Notes under the pieces: model-generated
What the model saw: only the letters and a program-made list of their open reading frames with translations
Told to the model about the DNA's origin: nothing
Databases searched by the model: none
Assembly (NCBI GenBank): GCA_000438075.1
Contig: FR903548.1
Coordinates: forward strand, 48,570 to 112,569
Reading direction: 5' to 3'
From: Clostridium sp. CAG:609
Lineage (GTDB): Bacteria > Bacillota_I > Bacilli_A > RF39 > UBA660
DNA length: 64,000 nucleotides
Position numbers and translations under genes: made by a program
Shown here: positions 1 through 31,238 of the stretch, piece by piece
Numbering within the stretch: position 1 is the first letter of the stretch
How the letters are laid out: each line of letters begins with the position of its first letter

Positions 1-1959
1 GAACCAGTAGTTAAAGATATCAAGTGTGGTAGTTACTTCAAACTAACAAGTCGTATCGAAGGAAGTAAATCATGTTACACCGGCGGAGAAACAGATGCAT
101 CAGCAAGAAATGGTGAAAAGAGTATTGATAAAGATCAATATATTCAAGATGTAATTGATGCACAAAAAACAATGATCGAAGGATTAAATCTTTATCGTAA
201 AGCTAAACAAGCACTAGCAACAGCATCAGATTACAGCATTTCATATGGTTGTGATGGATGTAGTGCTGAATCGTGGACAAGAACTGGTTCATATGTAGGA
301 CCTGTTGTTACAAACATTGACTACGAAGAAGGTCTTGTAACATCACAAGAAACTACACAAGGTTTCTTCTATGGAACTAAAGAAAGTATATCAAATAATA
401 CAAGTTATGATTCTGAAACAAAGAAATATGTATGTGTATCAAGTACATGTACACCTGGTACAACTGAAGCACAAGTTATTGCCTTAATAAAAGCAGACAT
501 GGCAAAAGGTAAATCAATGATGGAATCAGGATTTAAAGCTTATGAAGCAGCTCATACAGCATATAATGCTTGTACAACTGGATGGCAAAATAGCTTCTTA
601 TTTGAACAAAAAATCGGATATTATTATAATGAAAATCGTGGAAATGACGAATACAAGAGTCCATATTATGATATATTAGAAAGTGCTCAAAATAAAGATT
701 TATATTACCTTGAAGGAACAGGTTTAGCTGCACCAAAACCTACATCTAAGATAGAAATTTGGAAAAAGGCAACAGATGATAAAATTGAAACAGGTTCAGA
801 TTACACTTTTGACTTATCGATTGAAAATGGTTCTACAGGAAAATACAACTATAAATCAAGTTATGGTGGAACATTTGAAGCAAGAAAATATACAGTATGT
901 AAAGATCCAGAAGGTTCATGTGAAATAAGAGAAGAACAAATTTCTCAAGCAGCATTTGTTAAGAAATATGTTGAAAAAGAACAAGATTATATAACACCAA
1001 CAGCATTCTATCAAATAGCAGCTAATGGTAAAATAACAGTTAATAGTGGTTACACTGGAGACAAAGTTCAACTTGAAGCATTATTCAATAGCTTACCAGT
1101 ATCAACTAAAACAGTAGGTGGTGGAATATTCAAACTTAATATCGAATGGCTTGGTGAATTCTATGATAAAGATAATGCAGTTGGAAGACTTATGGATATT
1201 CCAGGTGTAGCATGGACAGATAGAAGACAAGGTGGAACAACATTTATGGATAGTCCAAAACATCAAGACTCATTCACCGGAGATTATAAATGTTATTATG
1301 AATCTCCATGTAGACCAGATGATTGTCCAAATTGTGACTTCGTTTGTGAAGGTGAAGATTGTGATTGGATACAATGTCCAGAATGTAAAATAGATTGTAC
1401 AAATTGTATCTTTGATTTAAACAAATTAAATGTTAATTTTAGAACAATTTCAACAACAAACTTCAATTCAGCTAACAGAACATATGGTTATAACTGGATT
1501 ACATCAAGTAGTATGCAAGCATTACAATTGTTAAATAAGAAAGCTGATGCCACAATAAAAGAAATCGAAGAAGTTAATGAAAGTATCTATGACCCAGAAG
1601 GTAAAACATCAGACGGTTCTAGTGCACTTGCATTAAGTATTAAGTTAACTCCAAAAGCAATCAGAGAGTTAAAAAACTACAATGAAAAACATTCAAGTGA
1701 TGGTGGATACATTAATGACTCATTAACATGTTATGATGCTGAAGTTAACGGTAAAACATATAAAAACATCTATTGTTATAGTGAAGTCATAGATGACTTA
1801 GTAAAAAATTATGAAGTAACAATTCCAGATGGTAAACGTTTAGATAGTGCAACAGCTAGAGCTGCATCACAAAATCAAAATGGATACTGGGAATTATGGT
1901 CTGATAAACACGAATTCATATATAGTGAAAGTGTTATCGGCGGACCTTCATGGAAGTAG
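1..1959 (+). CDS. Large cysteine-rich extracellular / pilus-associated protein, 5'-partial (the ORF-track Met at 172 is internal)
   Basis: The reading frame is open from base 1 to TAG at 1957-1959. No enzyme motif was recognised. There are 10 Cys in 39 aa (CYYESPCRPDDCPNCDFVCEGEDCDWIQCPECKIDCTNC, nt 1291-1407). It is the first gene of the Tad-like operon and is closely coupled to the next gene. Confidence 0.6.
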   Translation, partial: EPVVKDIKCGSYFKLTSRIEGSKSCYTGGETDASARNGEKSIDKDQYIQDVIDAQKTMIEGLNLYRKAKQALATASDYSISYGCDGCSAESWTRTGSYVGPVVTNIDYEEGLVTSQETTQGFFYGTKESISNNTSYDSETKKYVCVSSTCTPGTTEAQVIALIKADMAKGKSMMESGFKAYEAAHTAYNACTTGWQNSFLFEQKIGYYYNENRGNDEYKSPYYDILESAQNKDLYYLEGTGLAAPKPTSKIEIWKKATDDKIETGSDYTFDLSIENGSTGKYNYKSSYGGTFEARKYTVCKDPEGSCEIREEQISQAAFVKKYVEKEQDYITPTAFYQIAANGKITVNSGYTGDKVQLEALFNSLPVSTKTVGGGIFKLNIEWLGEFYDKDNAVGRLMDIPGVAWTDRRQGGTTFMDSPKHQDSFTGDYKCYYESPCRPDDCPNCDFVCEGEDCDWIQCPECKIDCTNCIFDLNKLNVNFRTISTTNFNSANRTYGYNWITSSSMQALQLLNKKADATIKEIEEVNESIYDPEGKTSDGSSALALSIKLTPKAIRELKNYNEKHSSDGGYINDSLTCYDAEVNGKTYKNIYCYSEVIDDLVKNYEVTIPDGKRLDSATARAASQNQNGYWELWSDKHEFIYSESVIGGPSWK

Positions 1960-1971
1960 GGGTGATTAGTT

Positions 1972-2382
1972 ATGAAAAATGCTTATTGGGCTTATTGGTT
2001 AATATTACTAGGAATGGTAATTGTAGTAATTATGTTGCTTGTTCAAAATTTAACAACAACAAGTACACAAGATTATTATCTTATCAAAGAAATAACTGAA
2101 GCATCACTAGTAGATGCTGTAGATTACTCATACTATCGTGATTATGGGGAAATAAAAATTAATAAAGAAAAATTTTATGAAAGTTTCTTAAGAAGATTTG
2201 CAGAAACTGCATCATTATCAACTACTTATACGGTGAGCTTCTATGGAGTATATGAAGCTCCACCTAAAGCTAGTGTTGAAATTAAAAGTAAATCAAATAG
2301 TTTCAATGTTGTAGGTGATGCAACAAGCTTAGATATGGTAGAAAGAATAGATGCCGTATTAGAAGGAAATCCAGTTGACTAA
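1972..2382 (+). CDS. Small N-terminally membrane-anchored protein (possible minor pilin / pseudopilin-like component)
   Basis: SD GGGGTGA lies upstream. There is a single N-terminal hydrophobic helix (WAYWLILLGMVIVVIMLLV) followed by a soluble domain. The gene sits between the Cys-rich protein and the cpaB-like genes. Confidence 0.45.
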   Translation: MKNAYWAYWLILLGMVIVVIMLLVQNLTTTSTQDYYLIKEITEASLVDAVDYSYYRDYGEIKINKEKFYESFLRRFAETASLSTTYTVSFYGVYEAPPKASVEIKSKSNSFNVVGDATSLDMVERIDAVLEGNPVD

Positions 2383-2398
2383 ATAAGGAGGAATAAAA

Positions 2399-3166
2399 AT
2401 GGGAGGAATAAAAAATACATTTAGTAAGTTTTTAACTAATAAAACTACCGTAACAATATTAGGTGTTATTCTTGGTTTAGGTGTTTTAGTAGGTTTTTAT
2501 ACATATCGTGTAAAAAATCAAGTTAATCCTGTTAAAGTGCCTGTTGCAAAAAGAGAAATCTTAGCAACTGAAGAAATAACTAAAGATGATATTGAATATA
2601 TACGTGTAAGTTCTAAGTTTTTAAAGAAAGCTGATGTATATAAAAGTACAACTAATTTAATTGGTAAATATGTAGCAACTGGAACATCTATTCCTAAAGG
2701 TGGTATGTTTTATCAAACATTGGTAGTTGAAAAAAAGGAATTGCCTAATGCTATTTTTGATGAAATACCAAAAGGATATACAATTTATCAATTACAAGTA
2801 GATAATACAAGTACTTATGCTAATTCAATATTCCCAGGAGATGTCATAGACTTATGGCTTAAAACAACTGAAGATCAATTATTAGTATTCGGAGAATTTA
2901 TTTCCAATATTAAGGTTCTAGCAGTAAGAGATTCATCTGGACAAAATGTTTTTGATGTAACTTCTGGTAGAAAGCCTGCATGGTTACTCTTTGCAGTTGA
3001 AACAGATATGTATCGTTATTTAAAACTAGCTGAAAATATCTCAGGAATGAGTGTTATTCCAGTACCTAAGAATAACTTAGTTAATCCAGATATTGGTTCA
3101 ACACAATATTCAAGTGATGAAATTAAGGCCTTAATAGATGCACAATCTGAAAGGAAGGGAGCATAA
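2399..3166 (+). CDS. cpaB: Flp pilus assembly protein CpaB/RcpC-like (copy 1)
   Basis: SD AAGGAGG. An N-terminal TM is followed by a SAF-like segment (VPVAKREILATEEITKDDIEY...IGKYVATGTSIPKGGMF) and a beta-rich C-domain. It is a clear paralog of the next ORF. Confidence 0.6.
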   Translation: MGGIKNTFSKFLTNKTTVTILGVILGLGVLVGFYTYRVKNQVNPVKVPVAKREILATEEITKDDIEYIRVSSKFLKKADVYKSTTNLIGKYVATGTSIPKGGMFYQTLVVEKKELPNAIFDEIPKGYTIYQLQVDNTSTYANSIFPGDVIDLWLKTTEDQLLVFGEFISNIKVLAVRDSSGQNVFDVTSGRKPAWLLFAVETDMYRYLKLAENISGMSVIPVPKNNLVNPDIGSTQYSSDEIKALIDAQSERKGA

Positions 3167-3168
3167 CT

Positions 3169-3969
3169 ATGTCAAATATCATAAATAAGATTAGAAACCT
3201 TTTATTAAATCGTAACACAGTTACGATTTTAGGTGTACTTGCTGGGGTTATTGCTTTATGGATTGCATATAGCATTACATTAGATAGAGCAGTTAAACCC
3301 CAAAAAGTACCTGTTGCCAATAAAGTATTAACAGCAGGTACCATAATTACTAAAGATGATATTGAATATGTCGAAGTAAATGGTGAAGCATTAAGAAAAG
3401 CAAGTGTTATAACATCATCTAGTCAATTAATAGGTTATTATGTTAAAAATGATACATCAATAGCTATCGGAGAAATGTTTTATAAAGCTCAAGTAATAAG
3501 TAAAGATAAATTAATTGAAAGAGATTTGGAAAGAGTTCCTGAAAACTTTAAAATGTATTGGTTAAAAGCAAATAATAAAACAACATATGCAAATTCAATA
3601 TATCCTGGTGATAAAATAGATTTATGGTTACTTACTAAAGTAGATGGTAAATGGATTTATGAAGAATTTATTAAAAATATTGAAGTATTAAATGTTAAAG
3701 ATGACAAAGGTCAAAATGTTTTTGATGTAACTAGTGGCAGAGAACCTGCCTGGTTATCATTTGCAGTTAATACTGAAATGTACACATATTTAAAAAAGGT
3801 TGAATATTTAGCAAATATGACAATATATCCAGTACCAGTAAATAAAAATAATCAAGATGAAGAAGCTAAAACAGAAATTAGCAATCAAGAACTTGTAAAA
3901 ATAATTGATTCTTTAGCAAGAAAGAACCCTGAAGAACAAAGTGTAGAAGAAAATAATAATAATGAATAA
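3169..3969 (+). CDS. cpaB: Flp pilus assembly protein CpaB/RcpC-like (copy 2)
   Basis: Same architecture as copy 1 (VPVANKVLTAGTIITKDDIEY...IGYYVKNDTSIAIGEMF; shared GQNVFDVTSGR.PAWL.FAV block). Acidic C-terminal tail. Confidence 0.6.
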   Translation: MSNIINKIRNLLLNRNTVTILGVLAGVIALWIAYSITLDRAVKPQKVPVANKVLTAGTIITKDDIEYVEVNGEALRKASVITSSSQLIGYYVKNDTSIAIGEMFYKAQVISKDKLIERDLERVPENFKMYWLKANNKTTYANSIYPGDKIDLWLLTKVDGKWIYEEFIKNIEVLNVKDDKGQNVFDVTSGREPAWLSFAVNTEMYTYLKKVEYLANMTIYPVPVNKNNQDEEAKTEISNQELVKIIDSLARKNPEEQSVEENNNNE

Positions 3970-3983
3970 AAGAGGTGATTTTT

Positions 3984-5084
3984 GTGAATGATGCTATATT
4001 TTCACAAATAGATTTTGGACCTTTAAAAGAGTTTTTAGAGGAAGATAATATTACAGACGTTTCATATTCAAACGGAGGTCAAGTTTGGCTAAAAACTCTT
4101 GATAAAGGTATTTATAGGGTTGAAAGACCTGAGATTAATAATGCTTTAATGGAAAAGCTTGCTTTTCAATGTTCCAATGTAATGGGTAAAACATTTAATA
4201 TGGCCCATCCATTCCTAGACGCAGAATCAGCAGAATTACGTTTAAATTTCGTACATGAATCAATTGCAACAAATGGAATATGTTGTGTTATAAGAAAGAC
4301 GCCAGCCAAAATCCGTCTAAATAAAGAAAAGCTTATCAATGAAAAATATGTTACCGAAGATTTACATGACTTTTTAATGACTTGTGTTGAAGGTCACTGT
4401 AACATCATGGTAAGTGGTGAAACTGGTTCAGGTAAGACAGAACTAGTTAAGTACTTAGCTAGCCACACAAAAGAAAATGAAAAGATAATAACTATCGAAG
4501 ATACACTTGAACTTCACTTAGATAAGATATTTCCACATAGAGATATAGTTGCTATGAAAACAAATAACATTGCATCATATTCTGATGTATTAGTAACTTG
4601 TATGAGACAGAATCCAAAATGGATATTACTATCCGAAGTTCGTAGTGCTGAAGCAGTTACAGCAGTTCGAAACTCAATATCATCTGGTCACAACATTATA
4701 TCAACAATTCACTCAGATAGAGCATTAAATATTCCAATGCGTTTATATAGCTTACTTGAAAATAGCCAAGATATTGAACAATTCTTAAAATCAATTCATA
4801 GATATATTCAAATAGGTATTCACGTAAAAGGTTACATGAGTAAAGAACTAGGTAGATTTCAACGTGAAATAATCGAAGTAGTTGAGTTTTATGTTGATGA
4901 AAATAATGAAGCTAAATCAAATATCATATTTAAGAAAAGTCTAGATGGAAAATTTAGTTTTAATAATCCATCAAAATATTTAATAGATTATCTTGGTGTT
5001 CAAGGCGTAACCATTAAAGATGATTATTTTGTTAAGTCAAAAGGAAATAATACCAACGAAGAGGTTGTCATTGAAAGCTTATAG
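3984..5084 (+). CDS. tadA: Type II/IV secretion-family ATPase (TadA/CpaF/VirB11-like)
   Basis: Walker A GETGSGKTE, Asp-box IITIEDTLEL, Walker B-like WILLSEVR, His-box GHNIISTIHS. The start is set at GTG 3984 because the track start GTG 3975 lies inside the SD AGAGGTG. Confidence 0.8.
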   Translation: MNDAIFSQIDFGPLKEFLEEDNITDVSYSNGGQVWLKTLDKGIYRVERPEINNALMEKLAFQCSNVMGKTFNMAHPFLDAESAELRLNFVHESIATNGICCVIRKTPAKIRLNKEKLINEKYVTEDLHDFLMTCVEGHCNIMVSGETGSGKTELVKYLASHTKENEKIITIEDTLELHLDKIFPHRDIVAMKTNNIASYSDVLVTCMRQNPKWILLSEVRSAEAVTAVRNSISSGHNIISTIHSDRALNIPMRLYSLLENSQDIEQFLKSIHRYIQIGIHVKGYMSKELGRFQREIIEVVEFYVDENNEAKSNIIFKKSLDGKFSFNNPSKYLIDYLGVQGVTIKDDYFVKSKGNNTNEEVVIESL

Positions 5085-5096
5085 AAAGGAGTAAAA

Positions 5097-6002
5097 ATGA
5101 AATATTTACCAGAGTTAATAATCCTACTTATTATAGCTATAGTTGTCTTAGTAGCAAGGCGTAATCCCGGTGAAAATGTTTATAAGTTTTTTGTAACAAA
5201 TGCCACTCGTGCTTATGATAAGTATGCTCCATATTCATTTAAAATGGTAAGAGAAAAAGCCATAGAACTTGGTCAAGAGTATACCCCACGTCAATACATA
5301 AGTCAAATAGTTATTCTTGGAGGTCTTGCTGGTTTAGTTGGTTACTTTTACTTTTATAGTATCATTATAGCAGTAATATATGCAATAGTTGCTATATCAA
5401 CAATACCATATCTTGCTTATTTAAGACTTCAAAGAGTATACAGTGAATATATATTTGAACAAATTCAAACATATACAACCAATGTTATAATGGAATTTAA
5501 TACAACTCAAAGTTTTGTCAAATCTCTAGAAGGTGTAAGAGACTCCGGAATCCTTGAAGATCCAGTTTTAAGTGATGTTAAAAAAATGATTGACATGTCA
5601 TATCAAAATGGAACCATTGATGAATCAATTCAATACTTTAATAATTTATATCCATTTTATATGGTAAAAAATATGCATCAATTATTCTTACAAATAACTA
5701 AAGAAGGTGCCAGAGATTCTGGACAAGCTCTTGAAAATATGTCACTAGATATCGACGCCTTAGTTGAAGGAGTATATCGTGACCAAATGGATCGTAATAA
5801 CTTCCATGCCAAATTTTTAAGATTCGGTTTAATTTTGTATTTCCTAGTTGTTGTTTTAAGATTCATGCTTGGTGAAGAAAACTACATTAAACTGCTTGAT
5901 ACATGGTATGTTCAACTTATACTTCATGCCATTGTTATTATAAACGCTTATTTCCTAATGACTGGAGAAAAGTATTATAACGAAGATGTGGGGGTAGAAT
6001 AA
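5097..6002 (+). CDS. tadB: Polytopic membrane protein, TadB / T2SS-F-like platform protein
   Basis: SD AAAGGAG. Topology is an N-terminal TM, a TM pair, a helical cytoplasmic domain and C-terminal TMs. It lies immediately downstream of the ATPase. The call rests on topology and context only. Confidence 0.55.
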   Translation: MKYLPELIILLIIAIVVLVARRNPGENVYKFFVTNATRAYDKYAPYSFKMVREKAIELGQEYTPRQYISQIVILGGLAGLVGYFYFYSIIIAVIYAIVAISTIPYLAYLRLQRVYSEYIFEQIQTYTTNVIMEFNTTQSFVKSLEGVRDSGILEDPVLSDVKKMIDMSYQNGTIDESIQYFNNLYPFYMVKNMHQLFLQITKEGARDSGQALENMSLDIDALVEGVYRDQMDRNNFHAKFLRFGLILYFLVVVLRFMLGEENYIKLLDTWYVQLILHAIVIINAYFLMTGEKYYNEDVGVE

Positions 6003-6790
6003 TGCAAATAGAAATAATTATAATAGCTATAATTGTATTTGGGATAATGACAATAACTGGTCAAATAAGTATTAATCAACTCATCAGTGATAATCAAATG
6101 CTTTTTATGAAATTAAAAGAAAAAGACTGGGATTTTCTAGTTCGTGCTAAATATGGTAATAATGTTAATCCCGATATACTTTTTAATAAAAGAATAAAGA
6201 ATGGTCTTATAACAATGGCACTTGGATTTGCCATTATGATTAAAAGCTTGAATAGTGTTAAAATCTTAATTATTGTTGTGGCAGGTTACTATGTATTTAA
6301 AACAGGTTATAATGATATAAAAAAATATTATCAAAGACATATGGCAGATATTGATTCAATGTTACCACACTATCTAAAGAACCTAGAAATACTTATTCAA
6401 CACTATACTGTACCAGTTGCAATAGGTAAATCAATGGCTGAAGCACCGGATATATTCCGCGAAGGACTTCAAGAAATGATTGATTCAATTAATGCCGGAG
6501 ATGATTCAATTGATCCATACATGAATTTTGCTAGAAAATATCCAGTCAGAGATTCAATGCGTATGATGAGACTTTTATATCGTTTAAGTCTAGGTCGTCA
6601 AGAAAGAAAACAAGAACAAATCTTAACATTCTCAAAATCTATATCTAACTTACAACAAAAAGCTAGAGAAACAAGATATAAAAATCGTCTAGAAAAGATG
6701 GAAAATAAAACAATGAGTATGTTAATAACAACTGGTTTTGGTCTAATGATTTTATTAGTACTGGCGGTTGTGCAACTAATGGATATATAA
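6002..6790 (+). CDS. tadC: Polytopic membrane protein, TadC / T2SS-F-like platform protein
   Basis: The start overlaps the previous stop (TAATG). Topology class is the same as the previous ORF. The call rests on context. Confidence 0.55.
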   Translation: MQIEIIIIAIIVFGIMTITGQISINQLISDNQMLFMKLKEKDWDFLVRAKYGNNVNPDILFNKRIKNGLITMALGFAIMIKSLNSVKILIIVVAGYYVFKTGYNDIKKYYQRHMADIDSMLPHYLKNLEILIQHYTVPVAIGKSMAEAPDIFREGLQEMIDSINAGDDSIDPYMNFARKYPVRDSMRMMRLLYRLSLGRQERKQEQILTFSKSISNLQQKARETRYKNRLEKMENKTMSMLITTGFGLMILLVLAVVQLMDI

Positions 6791-6815
6791 AAAAACAAAA
6801 AGATATTAAAAATAA

Positions 6816-6844
6816 TTGATATTTAACTGATTTTAAGTTATAAT
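6816..6844 (+). promoter_or_regulatory. Sigma-A-type promoter in front of the pilin-like genes
   Basis: TTGATA (6816-6821), 17-nt spacer, TATAAT (6839-6844), about 30 nt upstream of the SD AAGGAGG of the 6877 ORF. Confidence 0.5.
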
Positions 6845-6876
6845 AATTATATAAAATAAAGGAGGATTAAAAAAAG

Positions 6877-7134
6877 ATGAAAGAAGCTACAGGCGAATTA
6901 AATATGACTGTTGTTACAGTAGTTGCTATTGCAGCTGTTGGAGCATTCTTCTATTTCTTCATTTGGCCAGGTATTCAAGCAGGACTTGCAAGAAATACAT
7001 GTAAAAATATCTGCCCAGAAGCATCTGTTAAAAGCGTCAACGTTAAAGAAGGTACATGTACTTGTGGAAACGATGAAGTAATTAACTTTAAAGACGTTCA
7101 AGACGGAGGAAGTACTCAAGGCGAAGGTAAATAA
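6877..7134 (+). CDS. Pilin-like small protein, candidate major subunit (Flp-like class, non-canonical leader)
   Basis: 85 aa. The leader MKEATGELNMTV is followed by a hydrophobic helix (VVTVVAIAAVGAFFYFFIW) and a Cys-containing tail. Strong SD and its own promoter. Located in the Tad-like locus. Confidence 0.5.
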   Translation: MKEATGELNMTVVTVVAIAAVGAFFYFFIWPGIQAGLARNTCKNICPEASVKSVNVKEGTCTCGNDEVINFKDVQDGGSTQGEGK

Positions 7135-7161
7135 TTAAGTCATTAATAAAGAGGTGAAAGA

Positions 7162-7464
7162 ATGAAAGAGGCTACAGGAGAATTGAATATAACAGTTATT
7201 GTTGCAATATCAATTGGTATCTTGGCGGCCTTTTTTTTCGGTTTTTTATGGCCACTATTAAATAATAACTTTCACAGAACTGCTCAATGCAGAAATGCTA
7301 TTTGTAATTGTAGTGAAGAAGCAAGACAAAGAGCAAGCACAAGCACCGGATCAGATTATATGTGTGAATGTAAAATGAGACAAAAACAAACGGGCGAAGA
7401 AGACGATACAAATAATTATTTTGGAACTGGTGATAATATTTTTTATTGCCCATTTAAAGGATAG
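7162..7464 (+). CDS. Pilin-like small protein, paralog 2
   Basis: 100 aa. The leader is nearly identical (MKEATGELNITV) and is followed by a hydrophobic helix. The C-terminal part is unrelated and has 7 Cys. SD AGAGGTGA. Confidence 0.5.
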   Translation: MKEATGELNITVIVAISIGILAAFFFGFLWPLLNNNFHRTAQCRNAICNCSEEARQRASTSTGSDYMCECKMRQKQTGEEDDTNNYFGTGDNIFYCPFKG

Positions 7465-7474
7465 GGGATGAATT

Positions 7475-7987
7475 ATGAAAGAATCCATAAGTATGACAGC
7501 TATATTTCAAATAGTTATACTATTTATTTTACTTTTTACAGCAATTATGGCATTAACAATAAATAATTCAAATGCCTTTGGTGTAAAAGATGAAATAGTA
7601 AATATACTTGAATTAAATGGTGGTAAGTATTTAGATGATTCTAATGAAAATTTAAATGAAGAAATAGTAGATTTGCTTGCCAACACTTCATATAGAACAA
7701 CTGGAAAATGTCCAGAAGATGAAGGATATATTGGTTTTGAAAGAAATGGAAGTAGAATAACATCAAATCAAGATGCAACAGTATGTATAAGAGAAGTTAG
7801 AGCCACTGAAGGAGTAGATAATTACTTAACAGGTGGGGATGTTTTAGGTAACACCGTTGCAACTGATGACTTTGTCTTAGGTAGTTACTATGAAGTAATA
7901 GTGTTCTTCCAAATGGATTTACCTATAATAAGACAAATATATAACTTCCAATCAAAAGCACAAACTAAGGTTATATACCAAGATTAA
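7475..7987 (+). CDS. TadE-like N-terminally anchored minor pilin/pseudopilin candidate
   Basis: An N-terminal hydrophobic helix (IFQIVILFILLFTAIMAL) is followed by a soluble domain. It shares KCPE..GY and YYEV.VF....LPII blocks with the next ORF. Confidence 0.4.
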   Translation: MKESISMTAIFQIVILFILLFTAIMALTINNSNAFGVKDEIVNILELNGGKYLDDSNENLNEEIVDLLANTSYRTTGKCPEDEGYIGFERNGSRITSNQDATVCIREVRATEGVDNYLTGGDVLGNTVATDDFVLGSYYEVIVFFQMDLPIIRQIYNFQSKAQTKVIYQD

Positions 7988-7996
7988 GGAGTAAAA

Positions 7997-8449
7997 ATGA
8001 AAACAGTAAGTGAATCTACATGGTCATTTCAATTAATAATATTTTTTATTCTAATTTTTGCCTGTTTCTTAACTTTAATACTTAGTTATTCAAAAGCATA
8101 TACAATTAAAAATAGAATGTTAACTATTATAGAAAAGTATGAAGGAGTAACTGATGAATCTGCTAAAATAATTAATAGTTTTGCTAAACAAAAAAGTTAC
8201 AATACAACAAGTAAATGTCCAGAAGGATGGTATGGTGCAACAGACTTAGAAGGTGACATTGAATTGTCTGATGGAAGTGCAAAATATTATTATTGTTTTA
8301 ATGAGCTTCGTGCTAAAACGGGAAAGATTTATTATGAAGTTCAAGTATTTTATCGTTTTAATTTACCCATCATCGGTGAAGTTGGAATGTATCGAATAAA
8401 AGGACAAACTAAGACTTTCGTGGGATCTTTAGATAGAAAATACAACTAG
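7997..8449 (+). CDS. TadE-like N-terminally anchored minor pilin/pseudopilin candidate (paralog)
   Basis: An N-terminal helix (FQLIIFFILIFACFLTLIL) is present. It shares KCPEGWYG and YYEVQVFYRFNLPII blocks with the previous ORF. Confidence 0.4.
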   Translation: MKTVSESTWSFQLIIFFILIFACFLTLILSYSKAYTIKNRMLTIIEKYEGVTDESAKIINSFAKQKSYNTTSKCPEGWYGATDLEGDIELSDGSAKYYYCFNELRAKTGKIYYEVQVFYRFNLPIIGEVGMYRIKGQTKTFVGSLDRKYN

Positions 8450-8463
8450 AAAGGAAATAAATT

Positions 8464-9453
8464 ATGAATGTAATAATTTCAAATAAATATCAATCATTAT
8501 TAGCAAGCCTAAATATTGATGTTATAAAAAGTATAAACGGAGAATTTTCAGTTGATGAATTAGTTCAACAATTTCAAAGTTTTTACTACAATAAAATGAT
8601 TATTGATATAACTGCTATAAAAGGCTATGAAGATATAAATGTTATGCAAAGTTTATCAGTAAATTTTGATATGTCTAAAGTAATAATTTTATTAGATGAT
8701 TCAGAAAAAGTAAACTCACCAATGTATATATCTCAACTTATTTCAATGGGTATTTATAATTTTACAAATGATGTAAACACAGTAAAATATTTAATTGATA
8801 ATCCAAATCAATATAAAGATGTTGCAAATTACCACAACATAAGTGGATTTAAGAAACCAGCCTTAAATGAAAGAGCAGTAGATAATACCAAAGGTAAAAT
8901 TGGTCAAAAGGTAATAGGTTTTAAAAATGTAACAGAACATGCCGGAGCAACAACTTTAGTATATTTACTTAAATTACATTTAGAAAAAAGTTATAAAGTT
9001 AAAGCTGTTGAAGTAGATAAAAATGATTTTGTGTACTTTAATGATTCATCGTTAGAAAGCATATCAAGTATTAATTTTAATGATTTTGTATCCCAAAATG
9101 CAAATTATGATGTTATTTTAGTAGATATTAATGATGCAGATATTGAAGATTACTGTCAAGATATGGTATACTTAATTGAACCGGGATTAATTAAATTAAA
9201 TAAATTAATACGGAAAGATAATAGTATTTTTGAAAAGTTAAGAAATGATAAGATAGTTCTTAACAGAAGTGTACTAAATGAAAAAGATGTAATTGACTTC
9301 GAAAAAGAAAGTGGCAGTAAAGTATTTTATAACTTACCATGTCTAGATGATAAACTTGATGATCAAAGAGTTTTAAATGAATTTTTAACAGCTTTAGGAT
9401 TCAGTAGAGTGGAAGGAAGTCATTCATCAGGTATATTTAGTATATTTAAATAG
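8464..9453 (+). CDS. TadZ/CpaE-like protein: receiver-like N-domain plus ParA/MinD-fold domain with degenerate P-loop
   Basis: The C-domain has a MinD/ParA-like layout (KVIGFKNVTEHAGATTLVYLL...YDVILVDIN), but no GKS/T lysine is visible in the Walker A position. Located in the Tad-like locus. Confidence 0.5.
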   Translation: MNVIISNKYQSLLASLNIDVIKSINGEFSVDELVQQFQSFYYNKMIIDITAIKGYEDINVMQSLSVNFDMSKVIILLDDSEKVNSPMYISQLISMGIYNFTNDVNTVKYLIDNPNQYKDVANYHNISGFKKPALNERAVDNTKGKIGQKVIGFKNVTEHAGATTLVYLLKLHLEKSYKVKAVEVDKNDFVYFNDSSLESISSINFNDFVSQNANYDVILVDINDADIEDYCQDMVYLIEPGLIKLNKLIRKDNSIFEKLRNDKIVLNRSVLNEKDVIDFEKESGSKVFYNLPCLDDKLDDQRVLNEFLTALGFSRVEGSHSSGIFSIFK

Positions 9454-9464
9454 GGAGGTTTAAA

Positions 9465-9815
9465 ATGGAATTTTGTTACAAAAGTGCAACAATATGGCAA
9501 ATAGTTGGTAAAATAATATTTATAATTAAAATAATAGTACCAATATTAATTATTGTTCTAGCATCAATTGACTTAGGTAAAGCAACAATATCAAGTGATG
9601 ATAAAGCTATATCAAAAGCAGGAAAAACACTACTACGAAGGATAGTAACTGGTATCATCATATTCTTTATTCCATTACTAATTAAAGTATTATTTAATAT
9701 GGTAGCGGGTTTTAATGAAGATATAAAAAATGATTATGAAAATTGTGTTGTTTGTTTAACAGATCCTTATAATGAATGTGATACATCATATAAAGGTGAA
9801 ATATTTACAAAGTAA
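9465..9815 (+). CDS. Small 2-TM membrane protein with Cys-rich C-terminal tail (VirB2/TrbC-like topology; function unknown)
   Basis: SD GGGAGG. The layout is TM1, a conserved loop DLGKATISSDDKAISKAGKTLLRR, TM2, then a tail NCVVCLTDPYNEC. It is a paralog of the next ORF. Confidence 0.5.
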   Translation: MEFCYKSATIWQIVGKIIFIIKIIVPILIIVLASIDLGKATISSDDKAISKAGKTLLRRIVTGIIIFFIPLLIKVLFNMVAGFNEDIKNDYENCVVCLTDPYNECDTSYKGEIFTK

Positions 9816-9828
9816 ATATCATAAAAGA

Positions 9829-9857
9829 TTGACTTTACAGCTATTTTAGGGTAAAAT
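9829..9857 (+). promoter_or_regulatory. Sigma-A-type promoter for the second 2-TM gene
   Basis: TTGACT (9829-9834), 17-nt spacer, TAAAAT (9852-9857). Confidence 0.5.
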
Positions 9858-9886
9858 AAATGTATACAAAGGGAGGAGTGTTATTT

Positions 9887-10201
9887 ATGACTTTTTGTAC
9901 TGATGCACGTGATATTTTCTATACTATAGGAATGTTCTTACTAGTATTTAAAATTGTGATTCCTATTTTATTAATTATATTTGGTATGGTTGATTTAGGA
10001 AAAGCAGTTATTGCCAGTGATGATAAAGCTGTATCAAAAGCAGCAAAATCATTATTAAATCGTGTAATCGCTGGTATATGTATCTTCTTCGTTCCACTAA
10101 TCGTAAGTATTGTATTTAAGATGGTTGGTTCATTCGGAGAAGTTAAAGATCAATTTGATGTTTGTGCTAACTGTATTGCTAGTCCAACAACAAAATGTTA
10201 G
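9887..10201 (+). CDS. Small 2-TM membrane protein with Cys-rich tail (paralog 2)
   Basis: The start is moved to ATG 9887 behind SD GGGAGGAG; MTFCTDARD aligns with MEFCYKSAT of the paralog. Conserved loop DLGKAVIASDDKAVSKAAKSLLNR. Tail VCANCIASPTTKC. Confidence 0.5.
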   Translation: MTFCTDARDIFYTIGMFLLVFKIVIPILLIIFGMVDLGKAVIASDDKAVSKAAKSLLNRVIAGICIFFVPLIVSIVFKMVGSFGEVKDQFDVCANCIASPTTKC

Positions 10202-10394
10202 TTAATTAAAGCTATTAAGGTAGTCAAAAAAGACTATCTTTTATTTTGGTACAAAATAAAAGATCCATTAGATATTTCTAATGATCTTTAGCAGTACAAT
10301 GACATCTCATATAACATAATATACATTCTGGTATATATATTATGCATGAAAGGAGCAAGATGTCATCAATTAAATATTACCATAATTAATAAAA

Positions 10395-10451: not shown

Positions 10452-11900
10452 TTAAGCATTTCTATCTTCATAGATGCCTGTATATTCCCAACCAGCTAAT
10501 GAAGTTTCTTTGCTCCATGTATATTTAGGAGTTCTATGTATCCATTTAACTTCTACTTTTTTATCTGATTTAGTGTATCCAGGATACTTACTAGCATTTG
10601 ATTCAGTATCTCTTACACATGTATTCTTATCAGTATAAGTTACATTGAATTTTAATGGAACAAAGTAAACAGAACCTTTTTCACTTGAATATGGAACAAC
10701 ACCATTACCATTATAGAAATTAATAGTAACTCTAGTTCTATAAGTACCACCAGAAAGGTATGCATCTTGAACTGTGAACCCAAAATTATTTCTAGTTAAT
10801 GCTGAAGCTCTAAATACTGTAGCATTTTTAGGAACAATATCCCACTTAAAGTCATTACCAGTTTGATATACATTATATTTATTATCAAGGTATGCTTGGT
10901 AATCAGTTAAATTATTACTGAAGTATGAAATACTGTTTCTTACGATAGATAAATCATTAACGTTATCAGGGATATTTAACATTTGTAATTCGTAATTGTA
11001 TGAAGTACTCTTTGATGAAGAACCAACCCAACTAGTTGAGTAAATAGTTTTAGTATCTACTTTACAATAGTTATAAGTAACGGTTTCAGTAGATTTGTTT
11101 TCAGCATCTTTTTCATAAGAATATCCATCTGACCATTCACTCCATTTTCTATATTTATAATATCTTACTTTAGATGGAGTAGGAGTTGGATCTGGTGTAG
11201 GTGTAGGTTTAGTATCACTTCCACAATCAAAACAACAACTTCCACAACTTACATTAACGGTTACAGTAGTTTTAACAGTTACAGTAGATGTACTCTTTGT
11301 ACTTGAACTAGCACTATTTGAAGAACTAGAACTAGAACTTGAACCAGTATTTCCTTTAGTAACAGTCTTGTTATTATCTGTTTTACCATTATTGTTTGTT
11401 GTAGTATCAATTACAACATCTGAGTTAGTAGCATTGTTTTTACAAGTATCACTACTTGAGCATATATCAGCACTTTCAATTGTAGTAACTATAAAGTCTG
11501 ATTGCTTTCCACAAGTTAAACTAACCTTTAAAGCATAGTTACCATCAGCAGTTTTAGTAGCTTGAACATAACTTGAATTAGTATCACAAACTTTACCATC
11601 GTTAGTAAAATCAATTAATAACTTTTGGTTAATCATTTGAGCCAAAGTAAGTTTTTCAGTACCTCCAACTTTTTCAGGTAACTTAGATTTAGTGAAATAT
11701 TCAAATGCAGCAGTTTTCATAGTACTGATATTTGTAATATAATCACTATTTGAGCTAGCTAATGTATTGCTACTTGAATTTTTACCAGTAACTTTAGTAA
11801 AAATTAATCCAGCAAGGAATACAATAACAGCTAGAATCACTAACTTAATAAGAAGTGATCCCCAATTTAAACTTAAATTTTTATTTCCTTCTTCGTACAT
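10452..11900 (-). CDS. Membrane-anchored surface protein: pilin-like globular domain, Ser/Thr-rich and PT-repeat linkers, beta-rich C-domain
   Basis: N-terminal TM (LLIKLVILAVIVFLAGLIF). The segment LTLAQMINQKLLIDFTNDGKVCDTNSSYVQATKTADGNYALKVSLTCGK resembles the globular head common in Firmicute type IV pilin-like proteins. Poly-Ser run, CGSCCFDCG, PTPTPDPTPTPS. It has its own consensus promoter and terminator. Confidence 0.55.
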   Translation of the reverse strand: MYEEGNKNLSLNWGSLLIKLVILAVIVFLAGLIFTKVTGKNSSSNTLASSNSDYITNISTMKTAAFEYFTKSKLPEKVGGTEKLTLAQMINQKLLIDFTNDGKVCDTNSSYVQATKTADGNYALKVSLTCGKQSDFIVTTIESADICSSSDTCKNNATNSDVVIDTTTNNNGKTDNNKTVTKGNTGSSSSSSSSNSASSSTKSTSTVTVKTTVTVNVSCGSCCFDCGSDTKPTPTPDPTPTPSKVRYYKYRKWSEWSDGYSYEKDAENKSTETVTYNYCKVDTKTIYSTSWVGSSSKSTSYNYELQMLNIPDNVNDLSIVRNSISYFSNNLTDYQAYLDNKYNVYQTGNDFKWDIVPKNATVFRASALTRNNFGFTVQDAYLSGGTYRTRVTINFYNGNGVVPYSSEKGSVYFVPLKFNVTYTDKNTCVRDTESNASKYPGYTKSDKKVEVKWIHRTPKYTWSKETSLAGWEYTGIYEDRNA

Positions 11901-16678: not shown

Positions 16679-16731
16679 AATCTTGTTTTTTTTATATGTG
16701 TTATGATAAAATATTTATGAAGGAGATCACT

Positions 16732-18351
16732 ATGAAGAAAGAACCATTTTTAACATTTTTAGGTTTATTAATTATTCTATCGCTTTGTTTACTTGGATTA
16801 AAAGTATATGAAGATTATACTGCCAAAGATATCAAAGTAATCTTACCAGTTCAAGAGTATTCTTTAAATAGTGATGGCTATGAAAAAATAAATGAAGTAG
16901 TAACTAATGAATACATTTATATCTTATATCGTAGTGGTAACTCTTATCTTTTAAGAGAGTTAAACACACAAAACTCAAATGATAAAGAGTATAAAAATAC
17001 AATTGATGCTAGTTGTAAACTTCAAAATGAAAGTTCAATTCCTTATATAGTGTGTAAAGATAAGTCAAGTATAAAAACCTATGACATATATTTTAATTTT
17101 ATTAATGAAACAAACACTAATAGTGAATATGATTATGCTCTAAACTATAATATATATCAAAGCAATAATACCGAGTATCCGGTTGTTTTGACATCTTCTT
17201 GTAAAGAGACTTGTTATATTGTAAGAAAAAATGAGTTATTAAATAAAATAAGCTTATATGAAGATAGTGATTTATTAGAAATTAATGTAAAAAAATATAA
17301 ACAATATGAAAGTGGAATAATAACTTATACCAATAACAAAATTAAAGTATATAATATAAAAAATAATGATTATAAAGAATTTTCATCTCCGAAGGATGAC
17401 ATTGAAAGTAGATTAATAATGGTTAGTAATAATTATAATTTATATATATTAAATAATAAAGAAATAAGTGTATACAATCTATATAATAAGAGTAACATTA
17501 AAAATATTGACTTATTTAAAATAAAAGAAAAAATAAATAATATGTATATAATACTTACAAATCTATATCTACTAACAGATAATTATATATACATATATGA
17601 TTTATCAAGTATTGAAAAAATAGATAATGATACCAAAAGTAGTTATGAAAATATACTAATTAATAATAAAATAAAATATTTAGAAAATAACTACAATGTA
17701 ACTATTAGTTTTGATGTAGATAGTGGACTTCATGGAGATTATGAAATAAGCAAAATAACAAACTATAATGATATAGTAAATGCCTTAAGTTATGTGGAAG
17801 ATTATTTTTTAATGTTTAATAAAGAATTTTTTACAAGATTTTATGAAATGAATATGAATGGTCTAAAGATATTTTTAGCAAATGACATAAAGGGAAGTAA
17901 AGATGGATATAACTTAACAGATGTCGTAGGTTTATCATATCAAAAAAATAATACATATATTATTGTTGTCAAAGCAAATAATAGCTTACTTAAAACACTT
18001 GTACATGAAACAATGCATACGATAGATAATTATTTAATACTAAATGGTTATACATATGATACATGGAATTCTCTAAATAACTATGGTTTTACATATTCAC
18101 ACAAATACTATATAAATGAAACATTTACCGATACATTAAGTAATTACGAAAATAATGAAGATGTATACTTCGTAGATGCTTATGGAAGAAGTAGTGAAAA
18201 AGAAGATAGAGCAAGAATATTTGAACAAATTTGTCTAGGCAAAGATTTAAGTGAATATCCAAATCTTTATAATAAGGAAAAATATTTAAAAAATGAAATA
18301 GTTACGTATTTTCCAGAAATAAGTTATATCAAAAATTTTCAAAATAATTAA
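16732..18351 (+). CDS. Membrane-anchored protein with C-terminal HExxH zinc-metallopeptidase-like domain
   Basis: The start is ATG 16732 behind SD AAGGAG. N-terminal TM, a long Asn/Tyr-rich repeat-like region, then LVHETMHTID (HExxH) about 110 aa from the C-terminus. Confidence 0.45.
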   Translation: MKKEPFLTFLGLLIILSLCLLGLKVYEDYTAKDIKVILPVQEYSLNSDGYEKINEVVTNEYIYILYRSGNSYLLRELNTQNSNDKEYKNTIDASCKLQNESSIPYIVCKDKSSIKTYDIYFNFINETNTNSEYDYALNYNIYQSNNTEYPVVLTSSCKETCYIVRKNELLNKISLYEDSDLLEINVKKYKQYESGIITYTNNKIKVYNIKNNDYKEFSSPKDDIESRLIMVSNNYNLYILNNKEISVYNLYNKSNIKNIDLFKIKEKINNMYIILTNLYLLTDNYIYIYDLSSIEKIDNDTKSSYENILINNKIKYLENNYNVTISFDVDSGLHGDYEISKITNYNDIVNALSYVEDYFLMFNKEFFTRFYEMNMNGLKIFLANDIKGSKDGYNLTDVVGLSYQKNNTYIIVVKANNSLLKTLVHETMHTIDNYLILNGYTYDTWNSLNNYGFTYSHKYYINETFTDTLSNYENNEDVYFVDAYGRSSEKEDRARIFEQICLGKDLSEYPNLYNKEKYLKNEIVTYFPEISYIKNFQNN

Positions 18352-18378
18352 AAAAGTTAGCAAATTATAAAAAATTGC

Positions 18379-18408
18379 TTGACTTTTAATATATACTTAG
18401 TCTATATT
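18379..18408 (+). promoter_or_regulatory. Candidate promoter of mazEF
   Basis: TTGACT (18379-18384), 18-nt spacer, TATATT (18403-18408), just upstream of SD GGTGGAGGG. Confidence 0.4.
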
Positions 18409-18426
18409 ATAGGTGGAGGGATATAT

Positions 18427-18669
18427 ATGGGATACAAAGTACAAAAATGGGGTAATTCCAATGGAATAAGAATACCAAAAGTTTTTTTAGAAGCTTTAAA
18501 TCTTAAATCAGGAGATTCAGTAAGTATGGTAAGAGAGGAGGACAAAATAATAATCAAAAAGATTGCAAGACCAAGAGTTTCATTAAAACAAAGAATCAAA
18601 GATTATGAAGGTCCTAATGAGTGTGAAGACTTTACTTGGGACGAAGCAAAGGGGAAAGAGTTATGGTAA
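18427..18669 (+). CDS. mazE: MazE/AbrB-type (SpoVT-AbrB fold) antitoxin
   Basis: MGYKVQKWGNSNGIRIPK... is a typical swapped-hairpin N-terminus. It is 80 aa, and its stop overlaps the toxin start (ATGGTAA). Confidence 0.8.
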   Translation: MGYKVQKWGNSNGIRIPKVFLEALNLKSGDSVSMVREEDKIIIKKIARPRVSLKQRIKDYEGPNECEDFTWDEAKGKELW

Positions 18670-19004
18670 ATTACATACCGCAAGAAAGAGATATAGTATA
18701 CATTAATTTTAGTCCAATTAAAGGACATGAACAAAAGGGAGTAAGACCAGCATTGGTACTTAGTAACAGGTTATTTAATCAGTTCACAAATATGGTAGTG
18801 TTATGTCCCATAAGCACAAATAACAAGACATTTCCAACCCATTATCAATTCAAAAGTTTGAAAAAAATAAATGGTTCAGCATTATGTGAACATCTAAGAA
18901 GTGTTGATTTTAAAGAAAGACACATCGATTTTATAGAAAAATGTAGTAAAGAAGATTACGACGAAGTCATTGAACTAGTTAAATGTTTCTTTGATGGTAA
19001 TTAA
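18663..19004 (+). CDS. mazF: MazF/PemK-family endoribonuclease toxin
   Basis: The sequence RDIVYINFSPIKGHEQKGVRPALVLSN...VLCPISTN...PTH matches the conserved PemK/MazF core. The start ATG 18663 overlaps the mazE stop. Confidence 0.85.
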   Translation: MVNYIPQERDIVYINFSPIKGHEQKGVRPALVLSNRLFNQFTNMVVLCPISTNNKTFPTHYQFKSLKKINGSALCEHLRSVDFKERHIDFIEKCSKEDYDEVIELVKCFFDGN

Positions 19005-19018
19005 GAAGGAGAATTAAT

Positions 19019-31148: not shown

Positions 31149-31238
31149 GTAAAGAAAATTCTTTACTTATTTTTAAATTTAAAGTATATTGTTATTAATC
31201 TCAAAATGTGTTAAGATAAACAGATGGAGGAAAAAACT

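Follow-up and report, generated by a model that had tools for sequence, protein, structure and literature searches.

What does the operon at the left end of this DNA build? The window, by which we mean the whole stretch of 64,000 nucleotides analysed here (Clostridium sp. CAG:609, contig FR903548.1, positions 48,570 to 112,569), begins with a run of genes that had been annotated from the sequence alone as a Tad/Flp-like filament locus. We find that this chromosomal operon probably encodes a very divergent type IV-filament machine, Tad-like in its working and adhesin-presenting, which represents a distinct clade in the Firmicutes. What we take as established is the homology of its secretion ATPase (A), its CpaB-like proteins (B1 and B2), its platform proteins (P1 and P2) and its DUF5411 protein (D), the family assignment of a pair of small membrane proteins (m1 and m2), and the conservation of the operon and of an internal promoter. 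Our evidence agrees with the core of the initial annotation, which saw here a separate and little-characterised branch of the type IV filament superfamily and no prepilin peptidase in view.

Positions 1-10201 hold 14 open reading frames (ORFs), not thirteen as first counted, with a G+C content of ∼28%. All of them lie on the + strand and are as tightly coupled as had been claimed, with intergenic gaps from -1 to 44 nt and a single exception of 86 nt ahead of f1. Contigs that encode an identical 136-amino-acid (aa) D protein, which was found in 1404 assembly blocks, reveal two additional 5′ genes and thus a 16-gene operon; on these contigs it starts 4.2 kb upstream, past a divergent metallophosphatase gene. 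The operon and its immediate surroundings are made up as follows (TM, transmembrane):

U, operon gene 1, upstream of the window (from related contigs): 252 aa, signal peptide and C-terminal TM helix
G, 1..1959, + strand: operon gene 2, C-terminal 652 aa of a 1140-aa secreted Cys-rich giant
D, 1972..2382, + strand: DUF5411 protein, 136 aa, one N-terminal TM helix
B1, 2399..3166, + strand: CpaB/RcpC-like, with N-terminal TM helix, SAF domain and RcpC domain
B2, 3169..3969, + strand: second CpaB-like paralogue
A, 3975..5084, + strand: secretion ATPase of the TadA/CpaF-VirB11-FlaI group, short at 369 aa
P1, 5097..6002, + strand: polytopic platform protein, remote TadB/TadC (GspF/PilC) relative
P2, 6002..6790, + strand: second platform protein, remote TadB/C-type, paralogue of P1
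Promoter, 6816..6844, + strand: internal, sigma-70-type, TTGATA-17-TATAAT, preceding the pilin genes
f1, 6877..7134, + strand: pilin-like protein
f2, 7162..7464, + strand: pilin-like protein, paralogue of f1
E1, 7475..7987, + strand: 170 aa, candidate minor pilin-like protein
E2, 7997..8449, + strand: 150 aa, paralogue of E1
Z, 8464..9453, + strand: 329-aa cytoplasmic two-domain protein, TadZ-like candidate
m1, 9465..9815, + strand: 2-TM protein of the T4SS_pilin (VirB2/TrbC-like) family
m2, 9860..10201, + strand: 2-TM protein, paralogue of m1
Terminator-like hairpin and T-run, 10217..10240, + strand: ends the operon
X, 10452..11900, - strand: convergent 482-aa membrane-anchored protein, rich in Ser/Thr and Cys

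The genuine start of m2 is probably an internal Met codon at about 9887, and the counterparts of m2 on related contigs are called as 104 aa. Downstream of the operon, uvrA comes after X.

Core machinery and its likeness to Tad pili

ATPase A bears all three motifs quoted in the initial annotation (GETGSGKTE, IITIEDTLEL and GHNIISTIHS), and a Walker A motif, Asp box, Walker B motif and His box can be read from its sequence. Its assignment as a secretion ATPase held up. The protein matched Pfam T2SSE above the cut-off (E = 5e-29), and the NCBIfam models for VirB11, conjugal TadA, TrbB and FlaI all matched it far below their own cut-offs; the score against TIGR02788, the VirB11 equivalog model, was 114 bits with a cut-off of 250, and A is hence not assigned as a VirB11 equivalog. 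When the family profile was compared with PDB, CpaF, archaeal GspE, VirB11 and FlaI were matched near-equally at about 1e-17 to 1e-18. In a bootstrapped neighbour-joining tree of small sampling and without archaeal sequences, A grouped with the ATPases of a Priestia plasmid and of pLS20-type plasmids (89% bootstrap) and next with that of pXO1 (86%), and four CpaF sequences, one of them actinobacterial, formed a separate clade (89%). A thus lies outside the CpaF/TadA clade, and it also stands apart from VirB11/TrbB.

The reading of the two proteins upstream of A as CpaB-like held up. TIGR03177 matched the pair with E = 3e-9 and 9e-10, below its curated cut-off, B1 gave weak Pfam matches to RcpC and SAF, and the family profile aligned with annotated CpaB proteins at 98.5% hhalign probability (E 2e-15). 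B1 and B2 are clear paralogues (hhalign 100%).

Pfam and NCBIfam searches with all operon proteins gave no match for P1, P2, f1, f2, E1, E2, Z, U and G, and for P1 and P2 the PDB sequence and profile searches were negative as well. With P1 as the query, HMMER returned 234 matches among 1.84 billion representative proteins, and one of 21 distant full-length P1 relatives matched Pfam T2SSF. Because ordinary searches were near-silent on P1, the link to TadB/TadC had to come from profile-profile comparison and structure. Among the narrow RF39-type profiles compared with TadB/TadC by hhalign, that of P1 failed until distant relatives were included; the enriched P1 profile then matched TadB at 94.2% (E 1e-7), P2 matched TadB at 95.8% (E 7e-9), and P1 and P2 matched each other at 96.5%. 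Seven unrelated families that served as controls for both profiles all stayed below 5%. Moreover, P1 matched a Priestia protein annotated as T2SS F family by BLAST (E 3e-9), and P2 matched the neighbour of that protein (E 1e-11). The AlphaFold2 model of P1 (predicted local distance difference test score, pLDDT, 84.5) had a single structurally meaningful match in PDB, the EpsF cytoplasmic domain 2vmb (Foldseek probability 0.98, TM-score 0.68), with a root mean square deviation (rmsd) of 3.3 Å over 114 columns. We therefore accept P1 and P2, first described as of TadB/TadC topology, as remote TadB/C-type platform proteins on the strength of the controlled profiles and the P1 model. A distant relative of P1 (24% identity) was also seen in an unrelated metagenomic lineage (L100/L101, 9209-12774), where genes for an RcpC-domain protein, a P1-like protein, a P2-like protein and a 330-aa protein follow one another with no ATPase gene between them and with ribosomal protein genes beside them.

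The four proteins encoded directly after P2 have N-termini of a similar build. In f1 and f2, paralogues with an hhalign probability of 99.8%, an invariant N-terminus MKEATGELNMTVV is followed by a hydrophobic helix of ∼20 residues and a hypervariable, Cys-containing C-terminus. The leader consists of an invariant MKEATG, with ELNMT and the hydrophobic helix behind it; the first ∼30 residues (MKEATGELNMTVVTVVAIAAV...) are almost invariant between species, and the C-terminal 40-60 residues are hypervariable with Cys retained. A short leader-like N-terminus and a hydrophobic helix are thus present, which would fit the label 'pilin-like', but profile similarity to Flp is not. The alignments of both proteins also agree with the earlier observation that the canonical Flp processing motif G/xxxxEY is absent. 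E1 and E2, again paralogues (hhalign 99.9%), have a leader M[KR]E[AS]x[GS], a TM helix, a motif A-x-x-[VI]K-[DN]..[IL]E..GG and then a variable domain. They had been called TadE-like, and this name has to be dropped: the merged E1 and E2 profile resembles DUF4320 instead (proteins of pXO1, Priestia and pLS20 gene 40; 63.5%, E 7e-5) through a common motif after the TM helix. D, described earlier as a small anchored protein, does have one N-terminal TM helix, and its label changes to DUF5411 (Pfam E = 3.6e-58). It begins with MKNAYWAYW, its orthologues begin with MK[NE]A[YF]W[AG], and its profile matches plasmid DUF5411 proteins including that of pLS20 gene 36 at 91.8%; a DUF5411 protein of this kind is a hallmark of this family of systems. 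All five proteins, f1, f2, E1, E2 and D, show an M-K/R-E-A/S-x-G leader ahead of a hydrophobic helix, and their C-termini are hypervariable compared with the cytoplasmic parts of the system, which are 54-99% conserved.

The promoter TTGATA-17-TATAAT that the initial annotation had placed before the pilin genes lies at 6816-6844. Among the 50 related loci from which the spacer between P2 and f1 could be extracted, all 50 have a -35/-10 pair that matches it and lies equally far from the f1 start codon, with a ribosome-binding site AAGGAGGA behind it. Because the pair is kept in 50 of 50 loci, the f1 promoter counts as a phylogenetic footprint rather than a chance match in AT-rich sequence.

For Z, which had been described as a protein of ParA/MinD fold, searches of Pfam, NCBIfam and PDB with sequence and profile found no match. 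Its Walker A motif is degenerate (GFKNVTEHAGATT, no Lys), hhalign against TadZ references gave 8% with the alignment at the P-loop region, and a 493-aa Priestia protein gained no profile support. The AlphaFold2 model is of low confidence (pLDDT 62, from a shallow alignment of at least 79% identity) and has alternating beta and alpha elements over residues 1-123, followed by a C-terminal alpha/beta domain that resembles a P-loop NTPase. Its best Foldseek matches, at E ∼1e-3, were SIMIBI NTPases (SRP54, HypB, UreG, FleN and FlhG), which is suggestive, and on the model a TadZ-like role for Z is plausible.

The two proteins at the end of the operon were correctly described as having two TM helices, but their membership of the T4SS_pilin family (T4SS, type IV secretion system) had been missed. 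The matches of the window proteins to PF18895 are weak (m1 E = 0.012, m2 E = 0.0016), and 25 of 40 members of the m family match the model, the best at 4.6e-7; hence m1 and m2 are classed, from sequence, as VirB2/TrbC-like 2-TM proteins. An hhalign comparison of the m family with three plasmid VirB2-like proteins was negative. m1 and m2 match each other with an hhalign probability of 100%, have conserved Cys near both ends, and are conserved members of the system.

How close, then, does the locus come to a Tad pilus? The reference systems are the Aggregatibacter tad, Caulobacter cpa and Gram-positive tad operons such as that of Bulleidia (PMC12786226). Like these, the locus encodes a secretion ATPase of broadly the same group with a CpaB/RcpC-like protein upstream of it, a platform of two half-size TadB/TadC-type proteins, tandem genes for small pilins and for larger pilin-like proteins, and a predicted cytoplasmic accessory protein of two domains; the absence of a secretin is what one expects of a monoderm. 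There are also differences. The ATPase, at 369 aa and without an N-terminal extension, lies outside the CpaF clade; the platform proteins are not detected by Pfam T2SSF; the Flp motif, similarity to TadE (PF07811) and TadV are missing; the Z gene is placed after the pilin genes; and there are additional components, namely DUF5411, two VirB2-like proteins, and the giant G together with U, its putative partner. Because the tests on the ATPase clade, the Flp motif, TadE and TadV all failed, the locus is not a canonical Tad system, and it is Tad-like in its core. Pairs of TadB/TadC, TadE/TadF and flp-1/flp-2 are usual in Tad loci. The tandem pairs that the initial annotation had singled out as unusual are therefore little out of the ordinary for such loci, and the duplication of CpaB is confined to one lineage.

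Conservation in uncultured gut Bacilli

In a scan with one genome per species, an ATPase at least 80% identical to A was found in at least 564 genomes. Almost all of these are titled uncultured Bacilli, Tenericutes, Mycoplasma or Candidatus Onthocola (Bacilli incertae sedis according to NCBI) and come from human, rabbit, chicken, mouse and ruminant guts; a few bins labelled Muribaculaceae, Agathobacter or Clostridia were taken as mislabelled. The host had been called a monoderm spore-former, and the spore-forming part is supported by a full-length SpoIVA in the window (38551-40029, + strand; TIGR02836, 616 bits with a cut-off of 460). Since Lgt, a D-Ala-D-Ala carboxypeptidase, thioredoxin reductase and tRNA ligases are encoded there as well, the description of the host as a monoderm spore-former is reasonable. 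Relatives are deposited as uncultured Tenericutes, Mycoplasma or Bacilli, yet core sporulation machinery is present in the lineage.

The order U-G-D-B1-[B2]-A-P1-P2-f1-f2-E1-[E2]-Z-m1-m2 recurs nearly without exception in 80 fetched loci from ∼80 species-level genomes of these bacteria, with B2 confined to the closest ∼30 loci, and uvrA falls inside the fetched stretch of 33 of the 80. Because the gene order is kept and uvrA is a neighbour in 33 loci, the locus is chromosomal and vertically inherited. A mobile conjugative element was ruled out by the absence of transfer genes and by the conserved uvrA neighbour, and annotation artefacts or pseudogenes by conservation across the order. On one human-gut contig (L002) whose locus is otherwise the same as that of the window, an insertion sequence element with a rve-family transposase and a helix-turn-helix ORF sits between the last operon gene and X (18350-19569).

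Identity to the window proteins drops from the cell interior outwards:

ATPase: 80-99%
P1: 66-99%
P2: 58-100%
Z: 54-99%
D: 48-100%
CpaB: 35-100%
f: 32-100%
E: 21-100%
G: 22-100%

Such an inside-to-outside gradient is the pattern expected for a surface organelle with diversifying exposed parts.

The giant protein G is the largest of these parts. Full-length orthologues have a signal peptide, no LPXTG motif and no C-terminal TM helix, and the 33 Cys of G are mostly invariant among 31 orthologues. Conservation is best in the C-terminal 340 aa and in residues 441-520, and the N-terminal half is variable. Residues 919-957 (window nucleotides ∼1293-1409) contain 10 Cys in 39 residues, nearly invariant in the same 31 orthologues and with several CxxC pairs (CPNC, CPEC and CTNC); in an anaerobe's extracellular protein, such a cluster could serve metal binding or make up a disulfide knot. 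Together with the Cys contents of the pilin-like proteins (4.7-6 %) and of the 2-TM proteins (3.4-4.4 %), these counts agree with the remark that the extracellular components are strikingly Cys-rich. In four related loci (L063, L066, L071 and L075) the U-G pair is tandemly duplicated, in L071 with D as well, which suggests interchangeable adhesin cassettes. Because U directly precedes G and both are duplicated together, the arrangement suggests that U is a partner of G. G itself is a putative adhesin cargo or tip protein, because some species have a second copy of the whole U-G(-D) unit, because the C-terminal third is the most conserved part of G, and because the parallel systems described below all carry an adhesin at the same position.

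Related modules on Firmicutes plasmids

The best tblastn match to A was a plasmid locus of Priestia koreensis (NZ_CP061869; 33.8% identity, 8e-52). Its genes encode, in order, an S-layer-homology protein, an Ig-like giant, a DUF5411 protein, a SAF/CpaB protein, a ParA-like protein, the ATPase, a T2SSF-family protein, a second platform protein and a DUF4320 protein. The window has the same succession of giant surface protein, DUF5411, SAF/CpaB, ATPase, two platform proteins and DUF4320-like protein; unlike in the window, where Z follows the pilin genes, the TadZ-like gene of Priestia directly precedes the ATPase gene. A CpaB-AAA-CpaF/VirB11 region of pXO1 resembles the Priestia locus. The Priestia and pXO1 ATPases are longer (about 480 aa) than A, and in the pXO1 pilins a long leader runs up to a Gly, whereas that of f1 and f2 is short. 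The Priestia locus (L088, 2461-2979) also encodes a 172-aa polytopic protein in which TDVKELKTYN and SPGDTK align with the two catalytic-Asp motifs of CpaA/TadV. These A24-like motifs were seen by eye and Pfam Peptidase_A24 was negative; judged by the motifs, the protein may represent a divergent prepilin peptidase family.

A second parallel is found at the start of the conjugation operon of the Bacillus subtilis plasmid pLS20, where genes 34-45 are co-linear with the window: a large anchor-less adhesin, DUF5411, ATPase, P1-like, P2-like, DUF4320-like, pilin-like and T4SS_pilin proteins follow each other in both. The corresponding pLS20 genes are:

gene 34: TIE adhesin
gene 36: DUF5411 (E 1.4e-5)
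gene 37: ATPase, annotated 'VirB11'
gene 38: match to P1 (98.2%)
gene 39: match of its family to P2 (96.1%)
gene 40: DUF4320
gene 41: 47-aa pilin-like protein
gene 45 (L087, 12984-13214): 76 aa, 2 TM helices, T4SS_pilin at 32.1 bits (E 1.3e-7), above the gathering score
gene 48: VirD4, after the module

The weakest of these links are that of the E proteins to DUF4320 (63.5%) and that of the m proteins to gene 45, which have a Pfam family in common and no direct profile match; f1 and f2 gained no profile support against the 47-aa proteins of pLS20. A pLS20-like arrangement is also present on Paraclostridium and Peribacillus plasmids, and the Peribacillus homologue region includes an annotated TrbC/VirB2 protein (L094, 13526-13798). 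The two settings differ. The pLS20 module is part of a plasmid conjugation operon with VirD4, VirB4, VirB6 and VirB8, whereas the window locus is chromosomal and has no DNA-transfer genes; the window has CpaB and Z, which the pLS20 module lacks; and the small pilin-like proteins of pLS20 start with MLDQNTDR and have no Gly, whereas f1 and f2 start with MKEATG. In the parallel systems the adhesin position is taken by the Ig-like giant of Priestia, by TIE in pLS20, and by counterparts on the Paraclostridium and Peribacillus plasmids. By these sequence comparisons, the system appears to belong to a Firmicutes-specific clade with the Priestia plasmid locus and pLS20-type genes 34-45. This connection and the VirB2-like pair were both absent from the initial annotation.

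Previous work on pLS20 called gene 37 VirB11, left its neighbours as unknown, and held that Gram-positive elements make no conjugative pili (PMC8557374, PMC11730352); Gram-positive conjugation systems have likewise been said to possess neither pili nor VirB2 homologues (PMC8557374, PMC11730352, PMC12102498). The TIE adhesin was described as sortase-independent, and its mode of attachment was left open (PMC8092201). Operons of comparable make-up are also on record: a 2022 gene-embedding study based on natural language processing reported operons of Roseburia, Ruminococcus and Eubacterium with CpaF, PilC/GspF, DUF5411 and an internalin-like protein (PMC9523054). That study, which was computational, flagged these Clostridia operons as uncharacterised and 'secretion-related' (PMC9523054). 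Going by their description, they are like the window in combining DUF5411, an ATPase, a platform protein and an invasion- or adhesion-like protein in gut Firmicutes. They have 8-9 genes compared with 16 in the operon studied here, and the report contains no CpaB, VirB2-like proteins or pLS20 link, all three of which apply to the window locus.

Proposed working and alternative readings

If the operon encodes a filament machine, the hexameric ATPase A would drive the platform of P1 and P2, which would pull the pilin-like proteins f1 and f2, expressed from their own internal promoter, out of the membrane and polymerise them into a fibre through the wall. The CpaB-like proteins B1 and B2 would form an envelope-spanning collar, and Z would act as a TadZ-like positioning or assembly factor. 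E1, E2 and D, which have an MKEA..G leader like that of f1 and f2, would prime the fibre and form its tip or cap, and the tip would display the anchor-less, secreted, Cys-rich G, together with its partner U, as an adhesin. We infer that a filament is formed, that G is its cargo and that the leaders are cleaved. In type IVa pili, PilY1 is presented together with minor pilins. The Kil Tad pilus of Myxococcus has functionalised, customised minor-pilin tips (PMC12075869). Both are analogies of mechanism only, in that variable minor-pilin complexes or a large adhesin are presented at the tip and encoded near the pilus genes.

Several results weigh against a Tad-like filament. The pilin-like proteins f1 and f2 scored <1% in hhalign against Flp references, and so did E1, E2 and D against TadE and TadG references, with no Pfam or NCBIfam match to TadE; the leader of f1, f2, E and D has no Glu at +5, and where its Gly would be expected, the window copies of E1 and E2 have Ser or Glu. 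A hunt for an A24 prepilin peptidase was negative in the 64-kb window, translated in all six frames, and in 86 related loci (L001-L086, ±10 kb), both by regular-expression motif search and by tblastn with three queries of A24 or A24-like type; this extends the same finding made earlier for the first 10 kb. The CpaB profile matched no solved structure in PDB. The Foldseek E-value of the match between P1 and EpsF is 1.1 and not significant alone, so that probability, TM-score and rmsd single it out, and the evidence on Z is weak, consisting of a low-confidence model and no sequence match. Moreover, some related species have no f, E, Z or m genes beside P2, and in the literature searched no family member has been characterised experimentally apart from the TIE adhesin of pLS20. 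In L031, L035, L037, L039, L042 and L058 the locus ends after P2; no pilin, E, Z or m genes occur within 10 kb, and the next gene encodes a protein of 250-330 aa with one N-terminal TM helix (…ISTIISWTLF…), so that the system is split or reduced there.

These points leave room for readings in which the likeness to Tad is secondary or serves another end. It is rather improbable, in our estimate, that the operon is a domesticated remnant or relative of a Gram-positive, T4SS-type mating-pair apparatus, in which a VirB11-like ATPase would assemble m1 and m2 as VirB2-like pilins for cell-cell contact or DNA exchange. The ATPase and the m proteins speak for such an origin: the best NCBIfam model for A is VirB11 with 114 bits, among its nearest relatives on plasmids is pLS20 gene 37, annotated 'VirB11' and located in conjugation operons upstream of VirD4, the m family matches T4SS_pilin in 25 of 40 members, and gene 45 of pLS20 matches the same family at 1.3e-7. 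However, that VirB11 score is far under the cut-off of 250, CpaB and a TadB/C-type platform are hallmarks of type IV filaments and not of T4SS, and the locus is syntenic and vertically inherited. The operon, the 10 kb before it and the downstream genes scanned yielded no VirB4, VirD4, VirB6 or relaxase domain, and those downstream genes are housekeeping genes (uvrA, lgt, trxB, gltX and cysS). The initial annotation had named clustering of the ATPase with conjugative VirB11, beside VirB4, VirD4 or relaxase genes, as a sign against a filament; among plasmid relatives of A the nearest do include the pLS20 'VirB11', but VirB4, VirD4 and relaxase genes are not adjacent.

Two other readings keep a type IV-filament apparatus and change its purpose. 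A DNA-uptake (competence) pilus like the Tad-like system of Micrococcus luteus, used for transformation or nucleotide scavenging by a host-dependent gut bacterium, would fit the extreme conservation of the motor across the lineage (80-99% identity), and Tad-like pili are reported to drive natural transformation in a monoderm (PMC4322843). We regard it as very unlikely, with no ComEA, ComEC or DprA-type genes in or beside the operon, a giant variable surface protein encoded at its start, and parallel systems that start with bona fide adhesins. A pseudopilus or piston like that of the type II secretion system, which would carry G, and perhaps X, across the thick cell wall and make no external fibre, has the same parts list as a pilus (ATPase, platform and pilin-like proteins). 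It would suit a G that has a Sec signal peptide alone and no anchor, and related Clostridia operons carry the label 'secretion-related' (PMC9523054). Against it, f1 and f2 have hypervariable C-termini rich in Cys, which point to surface exposure and diversifying selection, and this reading seems highly doubtful to us as well. We prefer the adhesin-presenting filament.

A wider reading, which we put forward tentatively and consider unlikely on present evidence, is that the locus and the pLS20-type module together form a separate class of type IV filaments in Firmicutes, in which a TadA/VirB11-like motor and a TadB/C-like platform serve short pilins as well as VirB2-like pilins, whose fibre would carry anchor-less giant adhesins and which would be the 'missing' conjugative or mating pilus of Gram-positive plasmids. 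If true, it would explain the surface display of TIE in pLS20 and would be a surviving intermediate between the Tad and the VirB types of pilus assembly. The match to pLS20 gives a testable hypothesis for about ten conjugation genes of 'unknown function' in a genetically tractable host, namely that they build a Tad-like machine displaying the sortase-independent TIE. The module challenges the published claims that Gram-positive conjugation systems have no pili and no VirB2 homologues, and DUF5411 and DUF4320 gain a functional context. For the gut bacteria themselves, the operon is among the most conserved features of a widespread uncultured lineage. Because it is so widespread, by the counts of D and of the ATPase given above, it is likely a determinant of gut attachment by these bacteria.

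A few features around the operon deserve mention. X has an N-terminal TM helix, a long Ser/Thr/Asn-rich linker and 10 Cys, and gave no Pfam or NCBIfam family match; in many related species its gene adjoins the operon, and X may be a further surface component. Further downstream, a 551-aa ORF amid housekeeping genes (16696-18351, + strand) has no NCBIfam match at E ≤ 1e-5. A Snf2-family helicase of 1066 aa is encoded 21 kb from the operon (31224-34424, + strand), and its best NCBIfam model is NF053675, 'pilus expression-regulating Snf2 family helicase', at 491 bits with a cut-off of 1100.

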